A stretch of 25,737 nucleotides of DNA from a virus (taxonomy: Duplodnaviria > Caudoviricetes), in the IMG/VR virus record IMGVR_UViG_3300032247_000468, positions 1-25,737 of that record; one strand, 5' to 3'. Positions 973-23,832 of this stretch are shown here, in pieces (positions within the stretch are counted from its first letter, which is position 1; every line of letters starts with the position of its first letter). The notes under the pieces are model-generated. The model saw nothing but the letters and a program-made list of their open reading frames with translations, searched no databases and was not told the origin of the DNA. Both the position numbers and the translations under genes were made by a program.

Positions 973-2491
973 GGGTTTCACCCGTTTCTGTTGATGGTTG
1001 CGACCTGATGAATTCGCAACCGGTTTCTGTGTAAAGCAAATGGTAGCCATTTGCGTTCAGTTCATCAGCAACTGAAATCATGTTGTGTGCTTCAACGAAT
1101 GAGAGTGAACCGATAACGTCACCTGGTCTGATTTCGGTTCTGACCGGTTCGTTTCGCACCAGCCACGCTGCTGCAACAGCAACTTGGTCATCCATGTGCG
1201 GTGCAAGTTTGATGAGTGCTGTGCAGATGGCATGCCGGCGTGCTGATGGGACACCACCGAACCCACCAAGTTTGATGGGATAGTTAGCGTCACCGCATTC
1301 TTTGATGATCTGTGAAAGCCATATGTACTCCGCATCAGTCAACTGTTTTGCAACCAGGTTCAGTTCGGTCACAGTTTGTTCTGACACTTCACCAACTTCG
1401 TCCGGTGTGGGTCGACGCTTGTACGGTTCCGGTTCGGATTCCACATCAGCATTTTGTGGTTCGAGCAGATCCGGTTGGATGGGGAACGCTGCTTCTGCTT
1501 GACGTTCAACCCTGCCAACAACATGTTCAATCGTAGATTTTTGGTCTGCTGTGTACTCGAGCTGTGTTGACAGTTTAGGTATCTCCACCGGCCACATGTC
1601 AGCGACCAGTTGCCCGTAACCGTCTGCCATCAACTGTTTGATTCGATCGACCATCCAGGTACGCCAGGGGTCACCGGCTGCTGCGACACGTTCCGCTTTC
1701 ACAGCCAGTTCTGATGCACGATTCACCACAACCGGTTCCAGTTTCGTCAACGGTTTCTGCTTCCGCATCGACCGGACCCCTAACGCCAACTGGAGCGCAC
1801 CCAACCCAACTGTTAGATCCAGTTTGTAGATGGTGCAGGTTTCATCATCCGGTTGGATGTGAATGATTACACCTTCAGTTTGGGACACATCCCACATGGG
1901 TGTGTGCTGTTCGCCGTCATAGAACGTTTCTGACAGCGCATAGCAGCACAGTTGGATTGCGAAACCCAACGCACCGTAATCCATTGATGCACCTGTCTTC
2001 AGGTCTGCAATGAACCTGGTTGTTCCATCTGTGACGCACAGATCAAACGAACCAGCTGTTTTGAACTGTTTGTTGACAACGAACCGTTCGAACGAGTCCG
2101 GTACCACAGACAGACCACATTTGCGTAGTTGTTCGTTGACTGCTCGAACGTGACCGGCAAACTGGGCTGGTGGCTGATAGTCAGGGTCAGACCAGGAACA
2201 TTCCATGACTTTGTGGATGGCTGTTCCCAGTTCGCGTCTCAATGTTGCACCACCAGCTTCACCGGCACGTTCACACAAATCGTTGACTGCTTTGCGGTCT
2301 GTGCGGTCGATGGTTTGCATCATTGCGAGAAGATCAGGTCTGTCTGCGAGTCCGAATGCAACTGTGCGCTGACCCCATTTCATCAACCCACCTTGATCAT
2401 CAAGGGTTTTCCCAAGTGTCGATGGCCGCGTATACGGTTCACCATCCACAATCGGACGTTTGAACCGGTCCCGTTTGATCTTGTCTGTCAT
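965..2491 (-). CDS. PD-(D/E)XK (RecB/Cas4-like) exonuclease with C-terminal extension
   Basis: GTAIH, AGSFD, IADLKTG and QLCCY motifs in the N-terminal half; GGGAG RBS before ATG 2491. Confidence 0.75.
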   Translation of the reverse strand: MTDKIKRDRFKRPIVDGEPYTRPSTLGKTLDDQGGLMKWGQRTVAFGLADRPDLLAMMQTIDRTDRKAVNDLCERAGEAGGATLRRELGTAIHKVMECSWSDPDYQPPAQFAGHVRAVNEQLRKCGLSVVPDSFERFVVNKQFKTAGSFDLCVTDGTTRFIADLKTGASMDYGALGFAIQLCCYALSETFYDGEQHTPMWDVSQTEGVIIHIQPDDETCTIYKLDLTVGLGALQLALGVRSMRKQKPLTKLEPVVVNRASELAVKAERVAAAGDPWRTWMVDRIKQLMADGYGQLVADMWPVEIPKLSTQLEYTADQKSTIEHVVGRVERQAEAAFPIQPDLLEPQNADVESEPEPYKRRPTPDEVGEVSEQTVTELNLVAKQLTDAEYIWLSQIIKECGDANYPIKLGGFGGVPSARRHAICTALIKLAPHMDDQVAVAAAWLVRNEPVRTEIRPGDVIGSLSFVEAHNMISVADELNANGYHLLYTETGCEFIRSQPSTETGETHE

Positions 2492-2901
2492 TGTGTCTCC
2501 CATTCTTCGAAGGTCACATCAGTATCTTCACCAGGTGTGACAGTCTGTTCCCGTAGTGTTCGCCGGCGGTCAAGTTCACGCTGATAGGTGGTGAAAGCAG
2601 TTCTGCAATCATCACATCGACACCCGTAGTTGTAGCGTTTCGCAGTCCCACATTGCGTCCATTGCGCTTTGCTATTTGGGTTTCGCATGATTCTGCGACG
2701 CACAGCATTCGTCCCAGCCCAAATACCAAAACGTTCATCATTTTCCATGATGTGCTGTGTGCAAGGTTCACGAACCGGACAGGTCGAACAGATAGCGACC
2801 GCTTCACGAAACGATTTCGAGTCACCTTGTTCAGGAAAAAACAAATCCGTTTTTCCTTTGCACGCTGCTTCTTCGGTCCATGCACCCATAATGATTTTCA
2901 T
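2488..2901 (-). CDS. whiB: WhiB family Fe-S transcription factor
   Basis: W...AAC...DLFFP...C..CPV...C...ERFGIWAG with four conserved Cys; CACGGGAG RBS before ATG 2901. Confidence 0.92.
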   Translation of the reverse strand: MKIIMGAWTEEAACKGKTDLFFPEQGDSKSFREAVAICSTCPVREPCTQHIMENDERFGIWAGTNAVRRRIMRNPNSKAQWTQCGTAKRYNYGCRCDDCRTAFTTYQRELDRRRTLREQTVTPGEDTDVTFEEWETQ

Positions 2902-3071
2902 TGAATCTCCCGTGTGAGTCGTGTTGCGAGACGCGCAGAAACTCTGATCCACAATTTTGTGCGCCGGTTTGATTCCAACAGTTGTTGTTCCAACCAGTTG
3001 ATCTGTTTGTTTTGTGTTTCGATCAGTTCGAGCAGTCGCACCAGTTCATGGTGTTTGCGTCGCAGGATCAT
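2898..3071 (-). CDS. hypothetical coiled-coil protein (57 aa, MILRRKHHELVRLLEL...)
   Basis: Translated by hand; ATGA overlaps with both neighbours. Confidence 0.65.
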   Translation of the reverse strand: MILRRKHHELVRLLELIETQNKQINWLEQQLLESNRRTKLWIRVSARLATRLTREIQ

Positions 3072-17993: not shown

Positions 17994-18551
17994 TCAAATT
18001 CTCCAAATTCGGACGTAACTATCGAGCAGTTCGACAGCGTTTCGTGATGACAGAAATTCTGCGACCTTCAAACCTTTACCTGCATCCGGTTGGTTGTCAT
18101 CAACAGCTACCAATGATCCTTTGCGTAACAGGTGCCATGCTGCGCTGATTTCTCGCAGATGATGGTTCTGTGCAGGTTCAGGGTCAGCAAAATTGATGTC
18201 GAAAGAGTCCAAATACAGGAAATCAACAGACCCCACCATGTTACGCAACGTGACAATCGAATCCGCGGTTATCGCAACAGTTCGAGTCAAACCAAGCACA
18301 TCCACCAGGTGCGCACCGGTTGGGTCGATATCAATGGTGACAACCTGACCGTTCAACCGTTCAGCTGCGTCATTCCACACAATCGTGGATTGACCGTCAC
18401 CAGCCCAGTTCCCAATTTTTCTGACAGTCCCAGTTTCAACAATTTTTGCGTTCTGTGGGAGTGATGTGGTGATCAGTTCGAACGCTTCCAATCGTTTCCC
18501 AAGTTGATCCCAAAGAACTGTTGATTGGATGTCTGTCACCGGTTCACACAT
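17994..18551 (-). CDS. class I SAM-dependent methyltransferase (small-molecule/sugar type; start uncertain)
   Basis: IVETGT, TIDID, ADSI, DFLYLDS and VAVDD motifs (Methyltransf_24-like). Confidence 0.85.
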   Translation of the reverse strand: MCEPVTDIQSTVLWDQLGKRLEAFELITTSLPQNAKIVETGTVRKIGNWAGDGQSTIVWNDAAERLNGQVVTIDIDPTGAHLVDVLGLTRTVAITADSIVTLRNMVGSVDFLYLDSFDINFADPEPAQNHHLREISAAWHLLRKGSLVAVDDNQPDAGKGLKVAEFLSSRNAVELLDSYVRIWRI

Positions 18552-19759
18552 TCATCAATCTTGCCCAAAATCGGTTCCCAGCGTTCCACGAACACCTTGG
18601 TATGTTCGTACTGTTCTGCGTGTCTGCGGGCCTTAGAACGCCTCTCAGCCATGTCTGAAGCGCTGTATGCGTTCTCGAGCTGTTCAACAACCGAATGCAC
18701 CAAAGGTGTACAGAACCACGCTGAAGATCCTGCATCCCAATATGGCTGCACCGTCGCAGTCCAACCTGACCCATCGACCAGTTCCGGTTGGGAACTGAAA
18801 TCAGACACCACAGATGGGATACCACAAGCAGCAGCCTCCAACACCGGCACCCCAAAACCTTCACCGCGGCTACAAAGAAGGTGAACATCGAACGCGCCCA
18901 TGATGGTTGCAAGAACATTCGAGTCCAAACCAGCGTAGTAAGACCATTGATCAACCCAAATGATTCGATCATCCGCAATACCACACGCAGTTGCAAGCGC
19001 TTTCAGATCAATCCCCATCGCAGCACCACGCGACTCAGTATGAAGATACGCAATGACATCATCATGGCGTGACATGAATTCTGCCAACGCTAAAAGGTTC
19101 TCTCCGAACGCTTTACGAACCGGTGCGGTTCCTTTGTTCGCAGCAACCATGCCAACAACAAACGCGTCATCAGGAATGCCCAGAAGATCCCTACCGGTCT
19201 GACCATCAACAGTCATACCAGGTTTGAAAACAGACGTATCGACACTATGCGGTGCGTACTCAGCATCCACACCGGCACGATTCAACTGTTCCAAACCAAA
19301 CTTTGACATTGCGATGGAAAGCACATTGTCACGCTGCGACCATGCAAGAACCTTCGGTGGAACTGGCAGATGATCCACCGGAACCCATGACGCAACCAAA
19401 TCAATTCCATCGATGTTCGCACCGTCATAAACCCATGTGTCGAACAAGGTGAGAAGTGCTGTTGAAACACCAGTCTGCTGTTTGGCGTGCTGTGTGTGAG
19501 CTGTGAGGATGTCAGCAGAATACGGGTGGTAGCCGTTTGGGAGAACCTCAACACCTTCCCAAGATGTGACCCCACCGTACAAACCGTAGTTTGTGGAGAA
19601 TGTGACCGGTCTACCGGACGCTCGAATTCTGCGTGTCAGATTCGCAGCCTGGACCCCATAACCGGTGCCGGCCCAAGGTGCGTTGGAATGCACCACGATT
19701 CCTGTTCGAGCATCCTGAACAGACTTATGACCGGTGTTGCGTTTGTGTTTGCTACCCAT
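18536..19759 (-). CDS. GT-B fold glycosyltransferase (GT4 / Glycos_transf_1)
   Basis: SNAPWAGTGYG.Q, RK, and SRGEGFGVPVLEAAACGIP (EX7E) motifs. Confidence 0.92.
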   Translation of the reverse strand: MGSKHKRNTGHKSVQDARTGIVVHSNAPWAGTGYGVQAANLTRRIRASGRPVTFSTNYGLYGGVTSWEGVEVLPNGYHPYSADILTAHTQHAKQQTGVSTALLTLFDTWVYDGANIDGIDLVASWVPVDHLPVPPKVLAWSQRDNVLSIAMSKFGLEQLNRAGVDAEYAPHSVDTSVFKPGMTVDGQTGRDLLGIPDDAFVVGMVAANKGTAPVRKAFGENLLALAEFMSRHDDVIAYLHTESRGAAMGIDLKALATACGIADDRIIWVDQWSYYAGLDSNVLATIMGAFDVHLLCSRGEGFGVPVLEAAACGIPSVVSDFSSQPELVDGSGWTATVQPYWDAGSSAWFCTPLVHSVVEQLENAYSASDMAERRSKARRHAEQYEHTKVFVERWEPILGKIDECVNR

Positions 19760-19866: not shown

Positions 19867-21069
19867 TTACGAGGCTGCACCAATGAAATGCTTGACAGCA
19901 GCGGTGTCCGGAAGGTTTCCGTCACCACGCCATGTCACACGGAACGTGATCAGATCCGAAACGAACCCAACGCTGTCGTCGCGTGCAACTTCGATCCCAC
20001 GCACCTGACGGACGTAGTAGGACGAGAAGTCACCGAACACAACGGACTTGGCACCGGTGCCGGTTGCAGCCATGTCAGGGTTCTCGTAGACGGGGAACCC
20101 AAGCAGCATGTCCGGCTGACCAACCTGAAGGCTGGGCTGCCAAATGTAGTTGTTGGTGGTGTCCTTCAGCTTCCGCACGGTTGCGAGAGTCGAAGCCTTG
20201 AGCTGCCATGCGCCACCACGCCGGCGGTACGGACTGCCAACGCTGTACACCAGGTCGATAAGGTTGTCTGCGGTGGGAACACCGGCCACACCGGTTCCAC
20301 CGGTGACACCAAGCGTCGACGCAGAAACAATACCCTTCGGCTGGACGGTGCCAGTACCGGTGGTCAGACCAGCGTTGACCGCGGTTCCCATACCAACCGC
20401 AGCCTGACGTGCAACGAAGTCAAGAAGGTTGATGCCGGAATCCTCAACAACCTCACGGCTGAGCTGGAACGTGGCAGCGTACTTGAACGCACCAAGCGTG
20501 ATGAACGCCGAGAACGACGGATCAGACTCGCTGATCGAAGAACCCTCAGAAGTGATACCAGGAGCGGTGAAACCGGACTGGCGCGGAATCTGAAGGTTCG
20601 AACCGGAATCGGTGGTCAGGATGGTCACAACATTCCCATCCAGCATCGGACCCTGAAGCACCAGCTGCTCAACCAGTCGGTTGTAGAAGTTGGTGGGGAC
20701 CGGTGAACCGGTGCTGCTGGTCAGCACATCACGCTGCTCGAATGAGGCTGCGCGACGCTCACCAACAGCAATGCTGCGAATGATGTCAGCATCAGTCTCA
20801 ACCTGGACAGTCTCAGCCGGAGTGAAATCCTGCGGAAGACCAAGAGCAGACCGAGACTCGCTGATCGAACGCTCACGCGCCTCAGCGTCAAGAATCTGCT
20901 TACAACGTGCATCAATCGCATCAATGTCAGCGTTGATACGGTCAAACTGTGCAGACTCATCTGCACTCAGATCACGGTTCTCAAGAGTCGCAATGTCAAG
21001 CAGATTCTTAGCCTGCTCCCAAGCGCGTGCGCGATTCTCAGTCATCCGCTTCAGTAGATCATCAGTCAT
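19867..21069 (-). CDS. major capsid protein (HK97 fold, N-terminal delta/scaffold domain)
   Basis: N-terminal coiled coil; LKDT...YIWQP......PDMLLGFPV, FGDFS.Y and R.DG motifs; AAAGGAG RBS before ATG 21069. Confidence 0.95.
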   Translation of the reverse strand: MTDDLLKRMTENRARAWEQAKNLLDIATLENRDLSADESAQFDRINADIDAIDARCKQILDAEARERSISESRSALGLPQDFTPAETVQVETDADIIRSIAVGERRAASFEQRDVLTSSTGSPVPTNFYNRLVEQLVLQGPMLDGNVVTILTTDSGSNLQIPRQSGFTAPGITSEGSSISESDPSFSAFITLGAFKYAATFQLSREVVEDSGINLLDFVARQAAVGMGTAVNAGLTTGTGTVQPKGIVSASTLGVTGGTGVAGVPTADNLIDLVYSVGSPYRRRGGAWQLKASTLATVRKLKDTTNNYIWQPSLQVGQPDMLLGFPVYENPDMAATGTGAKSVVFGDFSSYYVRQVRGIEVARDDSVGFVSDLITFRVTWRGDGNLPDTAAVKHFIGAAS

Positions 21070-21178: not shown

Positions 21179-22666
21179 TCAAACAACCTTCCGATTGTTC
21201 AATTCAAACTTTCGACGAACCAACGCAACTGGAACAGTTCCTGGTTCGTTTGACGAAATTGTATCATCAGTGTTGCGCACATTTGCACCAGTTGTCTCAG
21301 GGTACGCAGGAAAACCAGTCACAATCGAAACTTCATGCAACACAACTTCACGCAAAATCCGTGATGAACCATCAGCAGACCAACTGTCACCACCACTAGG
21401 AACGCTGAACCCAAAAGACATTGCGTGAACAGTCCCATCAGCGATCAAAGTTGCAAGATCACGCCCAACAGTTGTGTTTGGAAGTTGTGCGTCGACTCGA
21501 AGACCACGCGCATCCTCAGTCAACACCAACGAAGAATTACGCGTGGACGCCAAAACCTGATCCATGTTGTGGTTCGCAAACATACGGATTTCTCGTCCGG
21601 ACGAAAGTGAACGCTTGAACGCACCAGGTGCAATCTGCTCGATAAACGGGAGCGGTTCAGAATCCGAATTGAAAACAGCCGCGTAACCGCTGAACTGCAT
21701 CCCATCACCGGCAGCACGCAGTTCGAGTCCACCATCGGCGAATGATCGAACCTCAACATCACGCCCATTGACCTTCCGCATTTCAACATCAACCTTCACA
21801 TAACGCAAAGGTGCCATGTCCGGTGCAATGTCTTGCATCATTGGATCAGCAGCCGGTTCTTCAACCACCGCAGGATTCACCAGCGCACCAGGAATCACCC
21901 ATTTCTTACAAATCCCATTGGGATCGATGTCACCTGCGACCAGTTCGCATGCACGCGGACCCTCATAGTACGCACACGAACTACACACCAAACCATCAGT
22001 AACAAACGGTGACACAGCAACATAATGCGCACCATCCGGACCGGAACCTTGGTCATACTGACCGAACAGATCCACAATCTCAGACTCAGATTCCATCTGT
22101 GCAAGCTGATGTGGAGTCAATGGGTACATACCTTCAACTTCACCATCACGGGTTTCAACACTCATGTTGTTCGACCTTCCATCACTCGAAACTTGATCCA
22201 AAACTTTGCGTGTCCAACTGACCGCAGGGTCACCACCCCACGCAGCCCACGCCACCCTTCCAGCAGACGGGTAACCATCTTCACCAGGTGACCAACCGGA
22301 CCCATTCTTATCAACAGCATGGCGTGCAAGATAAGAAGCCATCCTTCGCACCACATCCAAAGACACAGGTTCACCGAATGCCAACATTGCTGCGCGACGC
22401 CGGCCAACAGCCGTGAACCCTGAACCGGCGAACCCATCCGCAATCCAACCCAACGCACGTTGCGCTTCATCCTGCACACCTTGTGGTGGCTCGAACGAAT
22501 CCGGAACAGCACGTTCATTCGCTGTCGCAATGTTCAACGCAGCCATGTGCGCATACGCATCAGCAGCGTCAAGATGACAACCACCTTCAACTGTGGTTGA
22601 TTCACCAACTTTGACAACCGCGAACCCTTCACAGTCCGGTGCGTTATCAACAACCTCGTATGGCAT
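21179..22666 (-). CDS. HK97-type prohead protease with long multidomain N-terminal extension
   Basis: C-terminal FSGYAAVFN...E.IAPGAF...ANH...GL...MSFGF...LHEVSIVT.FPAY; about 300 extra N-terminal residues. Confidence 0.92.
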   Translation of the reverse strand: MPYEVVDNAPDCEGFAVVKVGESTTVEGGCHLDAADAYAHMAALNIATANERAVPDSFEPPQGVQDEAQRALGWIADGFAGSGFTAVGRRRAAMLAFGEPVSLDVVRRMASYLARHAVDKNGSGWSPGEDGYPSAGRVAWAAWGGDPAVSWTRKVLDQVSSDGRSNNMSVETRDGEVEGMYPLTPHQLAQMESESEIVDLFGQYDQGSGPDGAHYVAVSPFVTDGLVCSSCAYYEGPRACELVAGDIDPNGICKKWVIPGALVNPAVVEEPAADPMMQDIAPDMAPLRYVKVDVEMRKVNGRDVEVRSFADGGLELRAAGDGMQFSGYAAVFNSDSEPLPFIEQIAPGAFKRSLSSGREIRMFANHNMDQVLASTRNSSLVLTEDARGLRVDAQLPNTTVGRDLATLIADGTVHAMSFGFSVPSGGDSWSADGSSRILREVVLHEVSIVTGFPAYPETTGANVRNTDDTISSNEPGTVPVALVRRKFELNNRKVV

Positions 22667-23832
22667 CAGATTGGTGCTTCCGCGTCGATACCAGCCGGTG
22701 GTGGATCAATACCAGGACCGGCCATAGGTGAACCAGGTAGAGCCATGACGAATTCGTCACCACCAACATACGGTTCGAGTCCTTCAACAGCTCGAGCCTC
22801 GTTAGGTGTCAGGAACCCGTATTGGATGCCAAGTCCGTGCGCTCGAAACCGGTTCATCTGGTCTGCACGCAAAAACCCAGCAGTATCAAACATCAGTTCA
22901 CGCGGGGCCGGCATCAACGAAGACAACGCAGTTTCGATCCTACGCAACCAAGGAAGCAACGTGTAGGTCACGAAATGCTGACCGGCACTCTCATTGTTCT
23001 GATAGGTCTGCGAGTCACCACGCGCACCAATCATGTACGCAGGAACACGGAAGATGCGTGCAATCTGTGCAATCTGCAATTCGCGTGACGCGTTCAGTTC
23101 CATCGACGCAGCATCAGCAGACACAGACCGCCATTTCATGCCATTGGTCAACACAGCCGGACGCCTGCGACGCCGGTTCTGCGACTCCCAAGTTGCTTGC
23201 AACACCTTCGCCTGGTCAGTTGTCAGGTCACCATCAACTTCCAGCACACTCGAAGGTGTCGCACCTTCCGCATAGAACTGGGACAAATGACGTTCCATCG
23301 CTAACGCCAAACCAACAGTTGTGCGTTGCATTTCAATAGGTGACAAACCGATTGCAGCCTGCGGTGGAGTCCACCATCGAATGTGCAACATCTGATCCGC
23401 AGGAACAGACCCACCATTCACCGTGTATGTGCGTTGACGATTGATCACATTGACCTGAACATTCAACGGATGCAAAGGAGTGAGTGCAACAGGAAGTGAC
23501 GAACTGTTCCGGTCAACAAACAAATACGCGTTTCCATGCAACGCCAAACTGGACACAATCATGTGCATCAGTTCGTACTGGGTCACCGTAGAAGAAGCAT
23601 TCAACCAACCAGGAACAGGTTTCGTCTCAACATGTTCCCCAACGTGACGAACCGAACGCACAGGAAGTGACGCAACCGAATCAGCCAACAACGAAATACA
23701 CGAAAGCACAGCAGACACTTCCAACGCAGAAGTCTCATTGACCCGTTCACCTGACCAGTTGTTCCCACCAACCCACGCAGTCACCTGCAAAGGATCAGGT
23801 TGCACCATCGCACGTTTCGTAAACAGACTCAT
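22666..23832 (-). CDS. portal protein (HK97 family)
   Basis: V..CI.L.AD.VASLP, L.LHGNAY, GLSPI, IARIFRVP..IG and TPNEAR..E.L.P..GGD motifs. Confidence 0.95.
   Translation of the reverse strand: MSLFTKRAMVQPDPLQVTAWVGGNNWSGERVNETSALEVSAVLSCISLLADSVASLPVRSVRHVGEHVETKPVPGWLNASSTVTQYELMHMIVSSLALHGNAYLFVDRNSSSLPVALTPLHPLNVQVNVINRQRTYTVNGGSVPADQMLHIRWWTPPQAAIGLSPIEMQRTTVGLALAMERHLSQFYAEGATPSSVLEVDGDLTTDQAKVLQATWESQNRRRRRPAVLTNGMKWRSVSADAASMELNASRELQIAQIARIFRVPAYMIGARGDSQTYQNNESAGQHFVTYTLLPWLRRIETALSSLMPAPRELMFDTAGFLRADQMNRFRAHGLGIQYGFLTPNEARAVEGLEPYVGGDEFVMALPGSPMAGPGIDPPPAGIDAEAPI

Follow-up and report, generated by a model that had tools for sequence, protein, structure and literature searches.

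A HiPIP-like four-cysteine cassette, a candidate head cargo, in prohead protease polyproteins of tailed phages

The viral DNA stretch analysed here (25,737 nucleotides, hereafter the window) encodes a prohead protease polyprotein with an embedded four-cysteine domain that resembles the high-potential iron-sulfur proteins (HiPIPs). This HiPIP-like cassette, designated type A, is real and strongly conserved, and it is an optional, mostly viral, swappable module. A reading of the cassette as packaged cargo is reasonably supported: the optional, signal-less domain would hold a [4Fe-4S] cluster, be packaged within the polyprotein, be cut free at an Arg and act in the head as a one-electron redox sink, a combination that we consider evenly balanced between right and wrong.

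On its minus strand the window has the layout of a siphophage-like late operon, with genes for terminase, portal, prohead protease, HK97 capsid, glycosyltransferase, methyltransferase, connectors, tail and endolysin, plus a WhiB gene; the polyprotein with all its parts, the portal gene and the capsid gene are encoded on that strand. The polyprotein ORF (21179-22666, 495 aa) comprises, in this order, a 52-aa two-Cys module, a phrog_2859-like cassette, the four-Cys domain, an acidic linker, the S78 protease domain and a basic-hydrophobic tail. The portal gene (22666..23832, PF04860) is located immediately upstream, and the protease gene lies between it and the HK97 capsid gene, as in members of the S78 family. 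The HK97-type (S78) prohead protease domain was found downstream of the four-Cys stretch, as initially annotated (aa 316-461, 21284..21721), with 133 bits for PF04586 and 107 bits for TIGR01543 (cut-off 59), both above cut-off. Its residues His366 and Ser417, which we take from HK97 to be the catalytic pair, were invariant (n = 17/17), and the protease profile found no match among solved structures at E<=0.01. The short N-terminal module (22511..22666; C12, C30 and H31) is optional and had no NCBIfam match; its two-Cys, one-His pattern is retained by 102 of the 111 distinct N-termini. The second optional cassette (aa 57-154, 22205..22498) was recognized by its likeness to phrog_2859 and from relatives. 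The C-terminal tail (21182..21241) is, from its sequence and the C-termini of relatives, a candidate capsid-binding (packaging) signal, a role that we assume by analogy with HK97.

The four-Cys stretch described in the first-pass annotation was present as quoted (aa 214-256, 21899..22027), with H214, Y215, C228, C231, C240, I252, C253 and W256, and was supported by the sequence, phmmer and conservation. The domain is nevertheless larger than first quoted, extending from aa 178 to 262 (21881..22135) according to the profile boundaries, the AlphaFold model and the fold matches, and comprising an N-terminal helix plus the four-Cys core. Acidic linkers had been proposed on both sides; the downstream one stood (aa ~263-290, acidic and Pro-rich), whereas the upstream one (aa ~185-201) turned out to be a conserved helix that was counted as part of the domain because conservation reaches about 35 residues upstream through it. 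This acidic helix (22064..22114) corresponds to residues 8-24 of the AlphaFold model and is outside the HiPIP-aligned part.

Conservation was surveyed in an alignment of 64 relatives drawn from IMG/VR loci (55-84% identity), and all four Cys were invariant (n = 64/64), as were G212, H214, Y215, P220, V243, G245, P249, K254 and W256. The codons of the invariant residues varied freely, C228 for example being TGT in 35 and TGC in 29 relatives; invariant residues with mixed codons therefore indicate purifying selection on the protein. The strict pattern C-x2-C-xn-C-xm-C was present in 142 of the 150 best representatives, with H-[YF] upstream of the Cys in all 150 and a final Trp in 141 of the 142. 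The residue before the fourth Cys was aliphatic in every one of the 142 (I 75, V 35, L 30, A 2), whereas the solved HiPIPs aligned there have Tyr or Trp, a substitution that may give a different cluster shielding and potential. The cassette is strongly acidic, with a median net charge of -7 and a negative charge in 146 of 150 representatives, which would argue against direct contact of its surface with DNA.

A phmmer search of the four-Cys stretch against the PDB returned three matches at E<=10, all of them HiPIPs (3h31 with E 0.0072, 1hlq and PioC), and the match is beyond chance. The 64-sequence profile gave 3h31 at E 3.5e-5, followed at E 0.12-0.54 by four further HiPIPs and a group of disintegrins. 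The disintegrin likeness consisted of weak matches over three Cys (E 0.16-0.54 with the A2 profile) and was dropped, being unsupported by any fold search. The NCBIfam model for Iro (NF041615) matched at E 1.4e-6, but with 28.5 bits against a cut-off of 100. Pfam and PHROGs yielded no HiPIP match for the window's own domain (PF01355, E<=0.1), which stayed below the PF01355 gathering cut-off of 22 bits; PF01355 matched 50 of the 64 relatives weakly (E<=5, best 0.0016), and two relatives exceeded the cut-off on whole-protein score (P0150 with 23.0 and P0292 with 26.6). The weakest matches of the short-protein search were cellular-type short HiPIPs, several with twin-Arg leaders; among those scanned, P0147 and P0148 combined such a leader with a score at or above the Pfam cut-off, and hhalign of the cassette against P0147, a Tat-exported Pfam HiPIP, gave 97.7% over 37 columns.

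The AlphaFold model of the cassette was of good quality (pLDDT 91.4, pTM 0.79). In the Foldseek comparison, the 17 best listed PDB rows were all HiPIPs, with probabilities up to 0.98 but E>=0.03, and no PDB row reached E<=0.001. An independent VIA structure search of 48,161 chains returned nine at Z>=2, namely seven HiPIPs followed by two copies of the benzylsuccinate synthase (BSS) beta subunit (Z 2.4). The best matches were PioC (rmsd 2.3, 54 aligned residues), whose Z of 6.1 is below the level that the tool sets for a clear match, and the Rhodothermus protein (Z 5.9). These matches span residues 22-85 of the model only, the acidic helix being outside.

Sequence, profile and predicted fold thus all pointed to the short HiPIPs (PioC 6xyv, Rhodothermus 3h31, 1isu and Acidithiobacillus Iro NF041615; PF01355), with which the cassette shares the Cys spacing, the upstream Tyr, the final Trp and the predicted core fold, although the score remained below the Pfam cut-off. 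Of the HiPIP layout first proposed, the four Cys, the upstream Tyr, the aromatic after CxxC (Y233/Y234 in the window copy) and the final Trp held, but not the aromatic before the fourth Cys, which is I252 here. The remark that no export signal is visible was borne out: a simple twin-Arg pattern was found in none of the 22 short representatives and none of the 60 short homologs scanned, as against 3 of 4 cellular-type controls. The domain is therefore HiPIP-like and not a member of the HiPIP family, from which it departs on three counts: the Tat signal is missing, the residue before the fourth Cys is not aromatic, and the score lies below the Pfam cut-off. The cassette also differs from the short HiPIPs in its extra N-terminal acidic helix and the invariant His before the Tyr, and in being embedded in phage head proteins. 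It is likely that as a cluster holder the cassette works like a HiPIP, and it probably binds a [4Fe-4S] cluster.

Two known systems offer partial parallels. The beta and gamma subunits of BSS (4pkf, 9pzj) are, like the cassette, non-exported and HiPIP-like, and the accessible text of PMC12590467 describes them as [4Fe-4S] accessory subunits, with a structural or regulatory role or, as has been proposed, that of a hole acceptor; identity to the cassette is 13%, and they are fixed partners of one enzyme, whereas the cassette is mobile and viral. Phage lambda gpL is, as the cassette is predicted to be, a virion protein with an iron-sulfur cluster ([4Fe-4S]), as reported in the accessible part of PMC10721106, but its site is at the outer tail tip, its Cys spacing is different and it is a core structural protein, while the cassette is a predicted optional head cargo.

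At 50% identity the profile search recovered 734 clusters, 337 of them at E<=1e-10, and about 1000 IMG/VR stretches contained a cassette match by the search tool's estimate. When 185,579 prokaryote genomes were scanned for the pattern, only 8 loci emerged, each on a MAG contig (1.8-32 kb); Atlas clusters of the cassette were 90-100% viral, and DSL-LC01 was the one phage among 50,697 in GenBank with a match to the window's domain. Fusion partners were surveyed in the best 150 representatives, of which 22 were no longer than 160 aa (some perhaps fragments) and 128 were longer. Proteases were the commonest named partner (n = 55/128: S78 39, XkdF 7, S49 5 and ClpP 4), the cassette being N- or C-terminal to these four families; the other Pfam partners were zeta-like kinases (n = 5), ADP-ribosyltransferases (n = 4) and a portal (n = 1), and many of the 128 had no family or only DUFs.

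Locus context was examined for 74 of 159 listed ORFs plus three genome-contig ORFs. The cassette occurred as a C-terminal fusion to portals of the SPP1 type (L205) and the HK97 type (L177), in protease-capsid fusions (L229, L235), on genes that encode no protease themselves and are located between those for portal and protease (L213, L269, L307), and in genes just before the protease at contig ends (L287, L296). In L205 the portal fusion is followed by scaffold and capsid genes, with no protease gene between. Six of 10 stand-alone or tandem cassette genes adjoined a capsid or protease gene or were a few genes away from one, while for the other four (L250, L286, L300, L303) no head gene was seen among the scanned neighbours. 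Two divergent copies were also observed as adjacent genes or tandem fusions (L246:3652-4273, L303:3586-4270, L300:3602-4261 and L286:3608-4255), hinting at a paired function. What the partners share is the head interior rather than one enzyme. On the module tree, a quick and poorly resolved one with 2 of 75 branches starred, the host labels required 25 changes, as compared with a possible minimum of 7 and a mean of 36.1 after shuffling of the labels; this agrees with shuffling of the module without proving it.

When the 80 best S78 relatives were collected by the protease domain alone, 29 carried type A, 24 carried a second four-Cys cassette in the same N-terminal region, designated type B, 27 carried neither and none carried both; nine of the 51 without type A are cut at the 5' end. 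The absence of co-occurrence among these 80 proteases may be a clade effect, and one protein outside that count, P0075, has both types. Type B, exemplified by L164:1974-2159, L130:2745-2939 and Pontimonas phage phiPsal1 (MG835450, L385:3501-3680), keeps the aromatic before the fourth Cys. Its likeness to HiPIPs is a lead: the PDB profile search gave E~7 and hhalign 46-48%; its own predicted model, which was poor (pLDDT 60), had no structural match at Z>=2, and the one supporting fold match, of an Atlas model to a bacterial PF01355 cluster, had TM 0.68 over 56 residues. Phage phiPsal1 was seen on the cultured host Pontimonas salivibrio but has itself been lost, according to the accessible text of PMC6106888.

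The boundaries of the cassettes were compared with the predicted processing sites of the capsids. The window capsid protein (19867..21069, HK97-type major capsid protein by profiles) has F-E-Q-R at aa 110-113, where the junction alignment places the predicted end of the delta (scaffold) domain; the motif F-[ED]-x-R was present there in 47 of 47 close capsids and we take it, from HK97, to be the cleavage site. In 12 distant capsids the junction had an Arg in five, and E-A-R three residues earlier in seven. The window cassette starts just after E-T-R173 (aa 171-173, 22148..22156), a predicted self-cleavage site suggested by motif enrichment: in S78 polyproteins clustered at 60%, 8 of 50 being left out for short N-termini, E-x-R occurred 4-16 residues before the cassette helix in 19 of 42 clusters, as compared with 7-12% in three backgrounds, and Arg peaked at -8 to -11. 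At 50% identity, E-x-R preceded the cassette in 11 of 35 S78 proteins and 0 of 17 proteins of the other three protease families, so that the motif is not universal.

The boundary residue differed between protease types. Counted over distinct but related sequences, which are not independent events or lineages, and with anchors from one XkdF protein, the phrog_2859-like cassette was preceded by Arg only in 78 of 80 S78 proteins and by Lys only in 10 of 14 XkdF proteins, the TUDOR cassette by Arg only in 14 of 17 and Lys only in 7 of 10, and type B had, at -1, Arg in 13 of 13 and Lys in 3 of 3. The residue tracks the protease type, as expected if each protease frees its own cargo. XkdF capsids, inspected by eye, start without a delta domain, leaving no capsid counterpart for the Lys rule. 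The Arg/Lys boundary rule would predict exact fragments, and in the window the protease probably cuts the cassette free at R173 and at a downstream Arg.

Put together, these data would fit the following course. The cluster would be loaded in the host cytoplasm, and the polyprotein would be drawn into the prohead by its C-terminal tail, for which the tail-driven entry of the HK97 protease is a precedent; packaging of the cassette with the protease is a step that we propose with good confidence. The protease would then cut at R173 and subsequently at R288, R297 or a later Arg, and a folded fragment of 9-13 kDa would stay inside the head. Retention in the mature head is uncertain, and could go either way, because in HK97 both the protease and the delta domain are degraded and the resulting peptides escape from the head. 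The freed cassette would serve as a one-electron sink or sacrificial reductant protecting the packed contents, an end function that is a guess and somewhat unlikely. It is proposed because a HiPIP-type cluster is suited to it, because type B and ferritin-like genes share the gene region, because the cassette fused to a portal, with no protease nearby, suggests that it acts in place, and because BSS beta is proposed to be a hole acceptor in the accessible text of PMC12590467.

Alternatively, the packaged cassette might be injected with the DNA and act in early takeover or counter-defence in the next host, as a redox decoy, or as a cluster source or competitor for host Fe-S sensors. Among the 128 longer representatives it shares polypeptides with the ADP-ribosyltransferases and zeta-like kinases counted above, the window also encodes WhiB, and polyvalent effectors have been described as head-packaged and injected (accessible text of PMC5512222). 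The SPP1-type portal fusion of L205, with no protease gene before scaffold and capsid, makes release less obvious. We regard injection as unlikely, and, given those enzyme partners, it would be nearly as likely as the redox sink.

A purely structural cluster, in which the cassette would be a compact protease-resistant bead serving as filler or assembly aid with no redox role, is distinctly unlikely. The accessible text of PMC12590467 gives no known catalytic role for the HiPIP-fold BSS gamma and describes clusterless BSS beta as prone to proteolysis, and the cassette swaps freely with metal-free modules, but this would not account for the strong purifying selection that maintains two different four-Cys cassettes as well as tandem copies and stand-alone genes. 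It is very unlikely that the fold derives from a HiPIP and now binds Zn or forms disulfides: the loss of the aromatic before the fourth Cys and the score below the Pfam cut-off would agree with this, but the cassette retains all four ligands together with the Tyr upstream, the aromatics that follow CxxC and the final Trp, and all significant structural neighbours bind [4Fe-4S]. Among the uses offered in the first-pass annotation, packaged cargo fits best, while a redox or iron sensor gating the prohead protease is most improbable, since 51 of 80 close protease relatives are without the cassette, which occurs at either end of four protease families and also on portals, on unrelated head proteins and alone, even though proteases are its commonest named partner and BSS beta is a HiPIP-fold subunit able to regulate an enzyme (accessible text of PMC12590467).

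It is possible, though tentative, that many tailed phages have recruited HiPIP-type [4Fe-4S] domains, in at least two cassette families, and load them into the head via a protease-processed polyprotein, internal redox chemistry then shielding the genome or priming the next host. If so, an exported electron-carrier fold would have been reused without export, and phage particles with such widespread head cargo would carry redox-active metal centres, which would bear on particle survival, early infection and the iron held in viruses; the known virion iron-sulfur clusters are on tail tips and have no known function.

Phage polyvalent proteins, thought to be packaged and processed, combine several shuffled domains and are linked to portal and head genes, an architecture that the cassette proteins share, and the main text of PMC5512222, in the part available, has no match for 'HiPIP' or 'iron-sulfur'. 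The statement that no characterised example is known agreed with our literature search, which, subscription papers and most supplements aside, found no published description of a HiPIP-like phage protease cassette; six terms had no match in the accessible text of PMC9503650. A literature search on HK97 encapsidation gave no match. Only automatic database labels of phage 'high potential iron-sulfur' proteins were found: UniProt A0A6J5M9J5 (TM 0.90 to the cassette model) and A0A879R316, and GenBank WJZ48512 of DSL-LC01. [quoted passage not shown] Newly described here are type B and the Arg/Lys boundary rule.

Several observations were made on neighbouring genes. WJZ48512 (L016:1038-1772 in OQ999401) is a third, more Cys-rich 'high potential iron-sulfur protein', encoded just before head-protease genes; its Cys pattern is different from that of the cassette, and it had no Pfam match at E<=0.001. 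Ferritin-like genes (PF00210) occur shortly after XkdF polyproteins (L308:5572-6039, L312:6473-6967, L316:5638-6150 and L324:7153-7608); a fixed ferritin-HiPIP pair was rejected, as these follow XkdF both with type A (L308, L324) and without it (L312, L316). The phrog_2859-like cassette is very common in S78 and XkdF polyproteins and is also encoded alone, between protease and capsid genes (L179:4001-4333 and L182:720-1052), where it has a basic-hydrophobic tail like that of the protease C-terminus, possibly a packaging signal. The WhiB-family factor of the window (2488-2952) would be a second Fe-S protein of this phage, and its gene points to an actinobacterial host. Directly after the window capsid gene lie a glycosyltransferase (18536-19759) and a methyltransferase (17994-18551), a pair for which virion glycosylation is a possible role, and in phiPsal1 a glycosyltransferase likewise follows the capsid gene.
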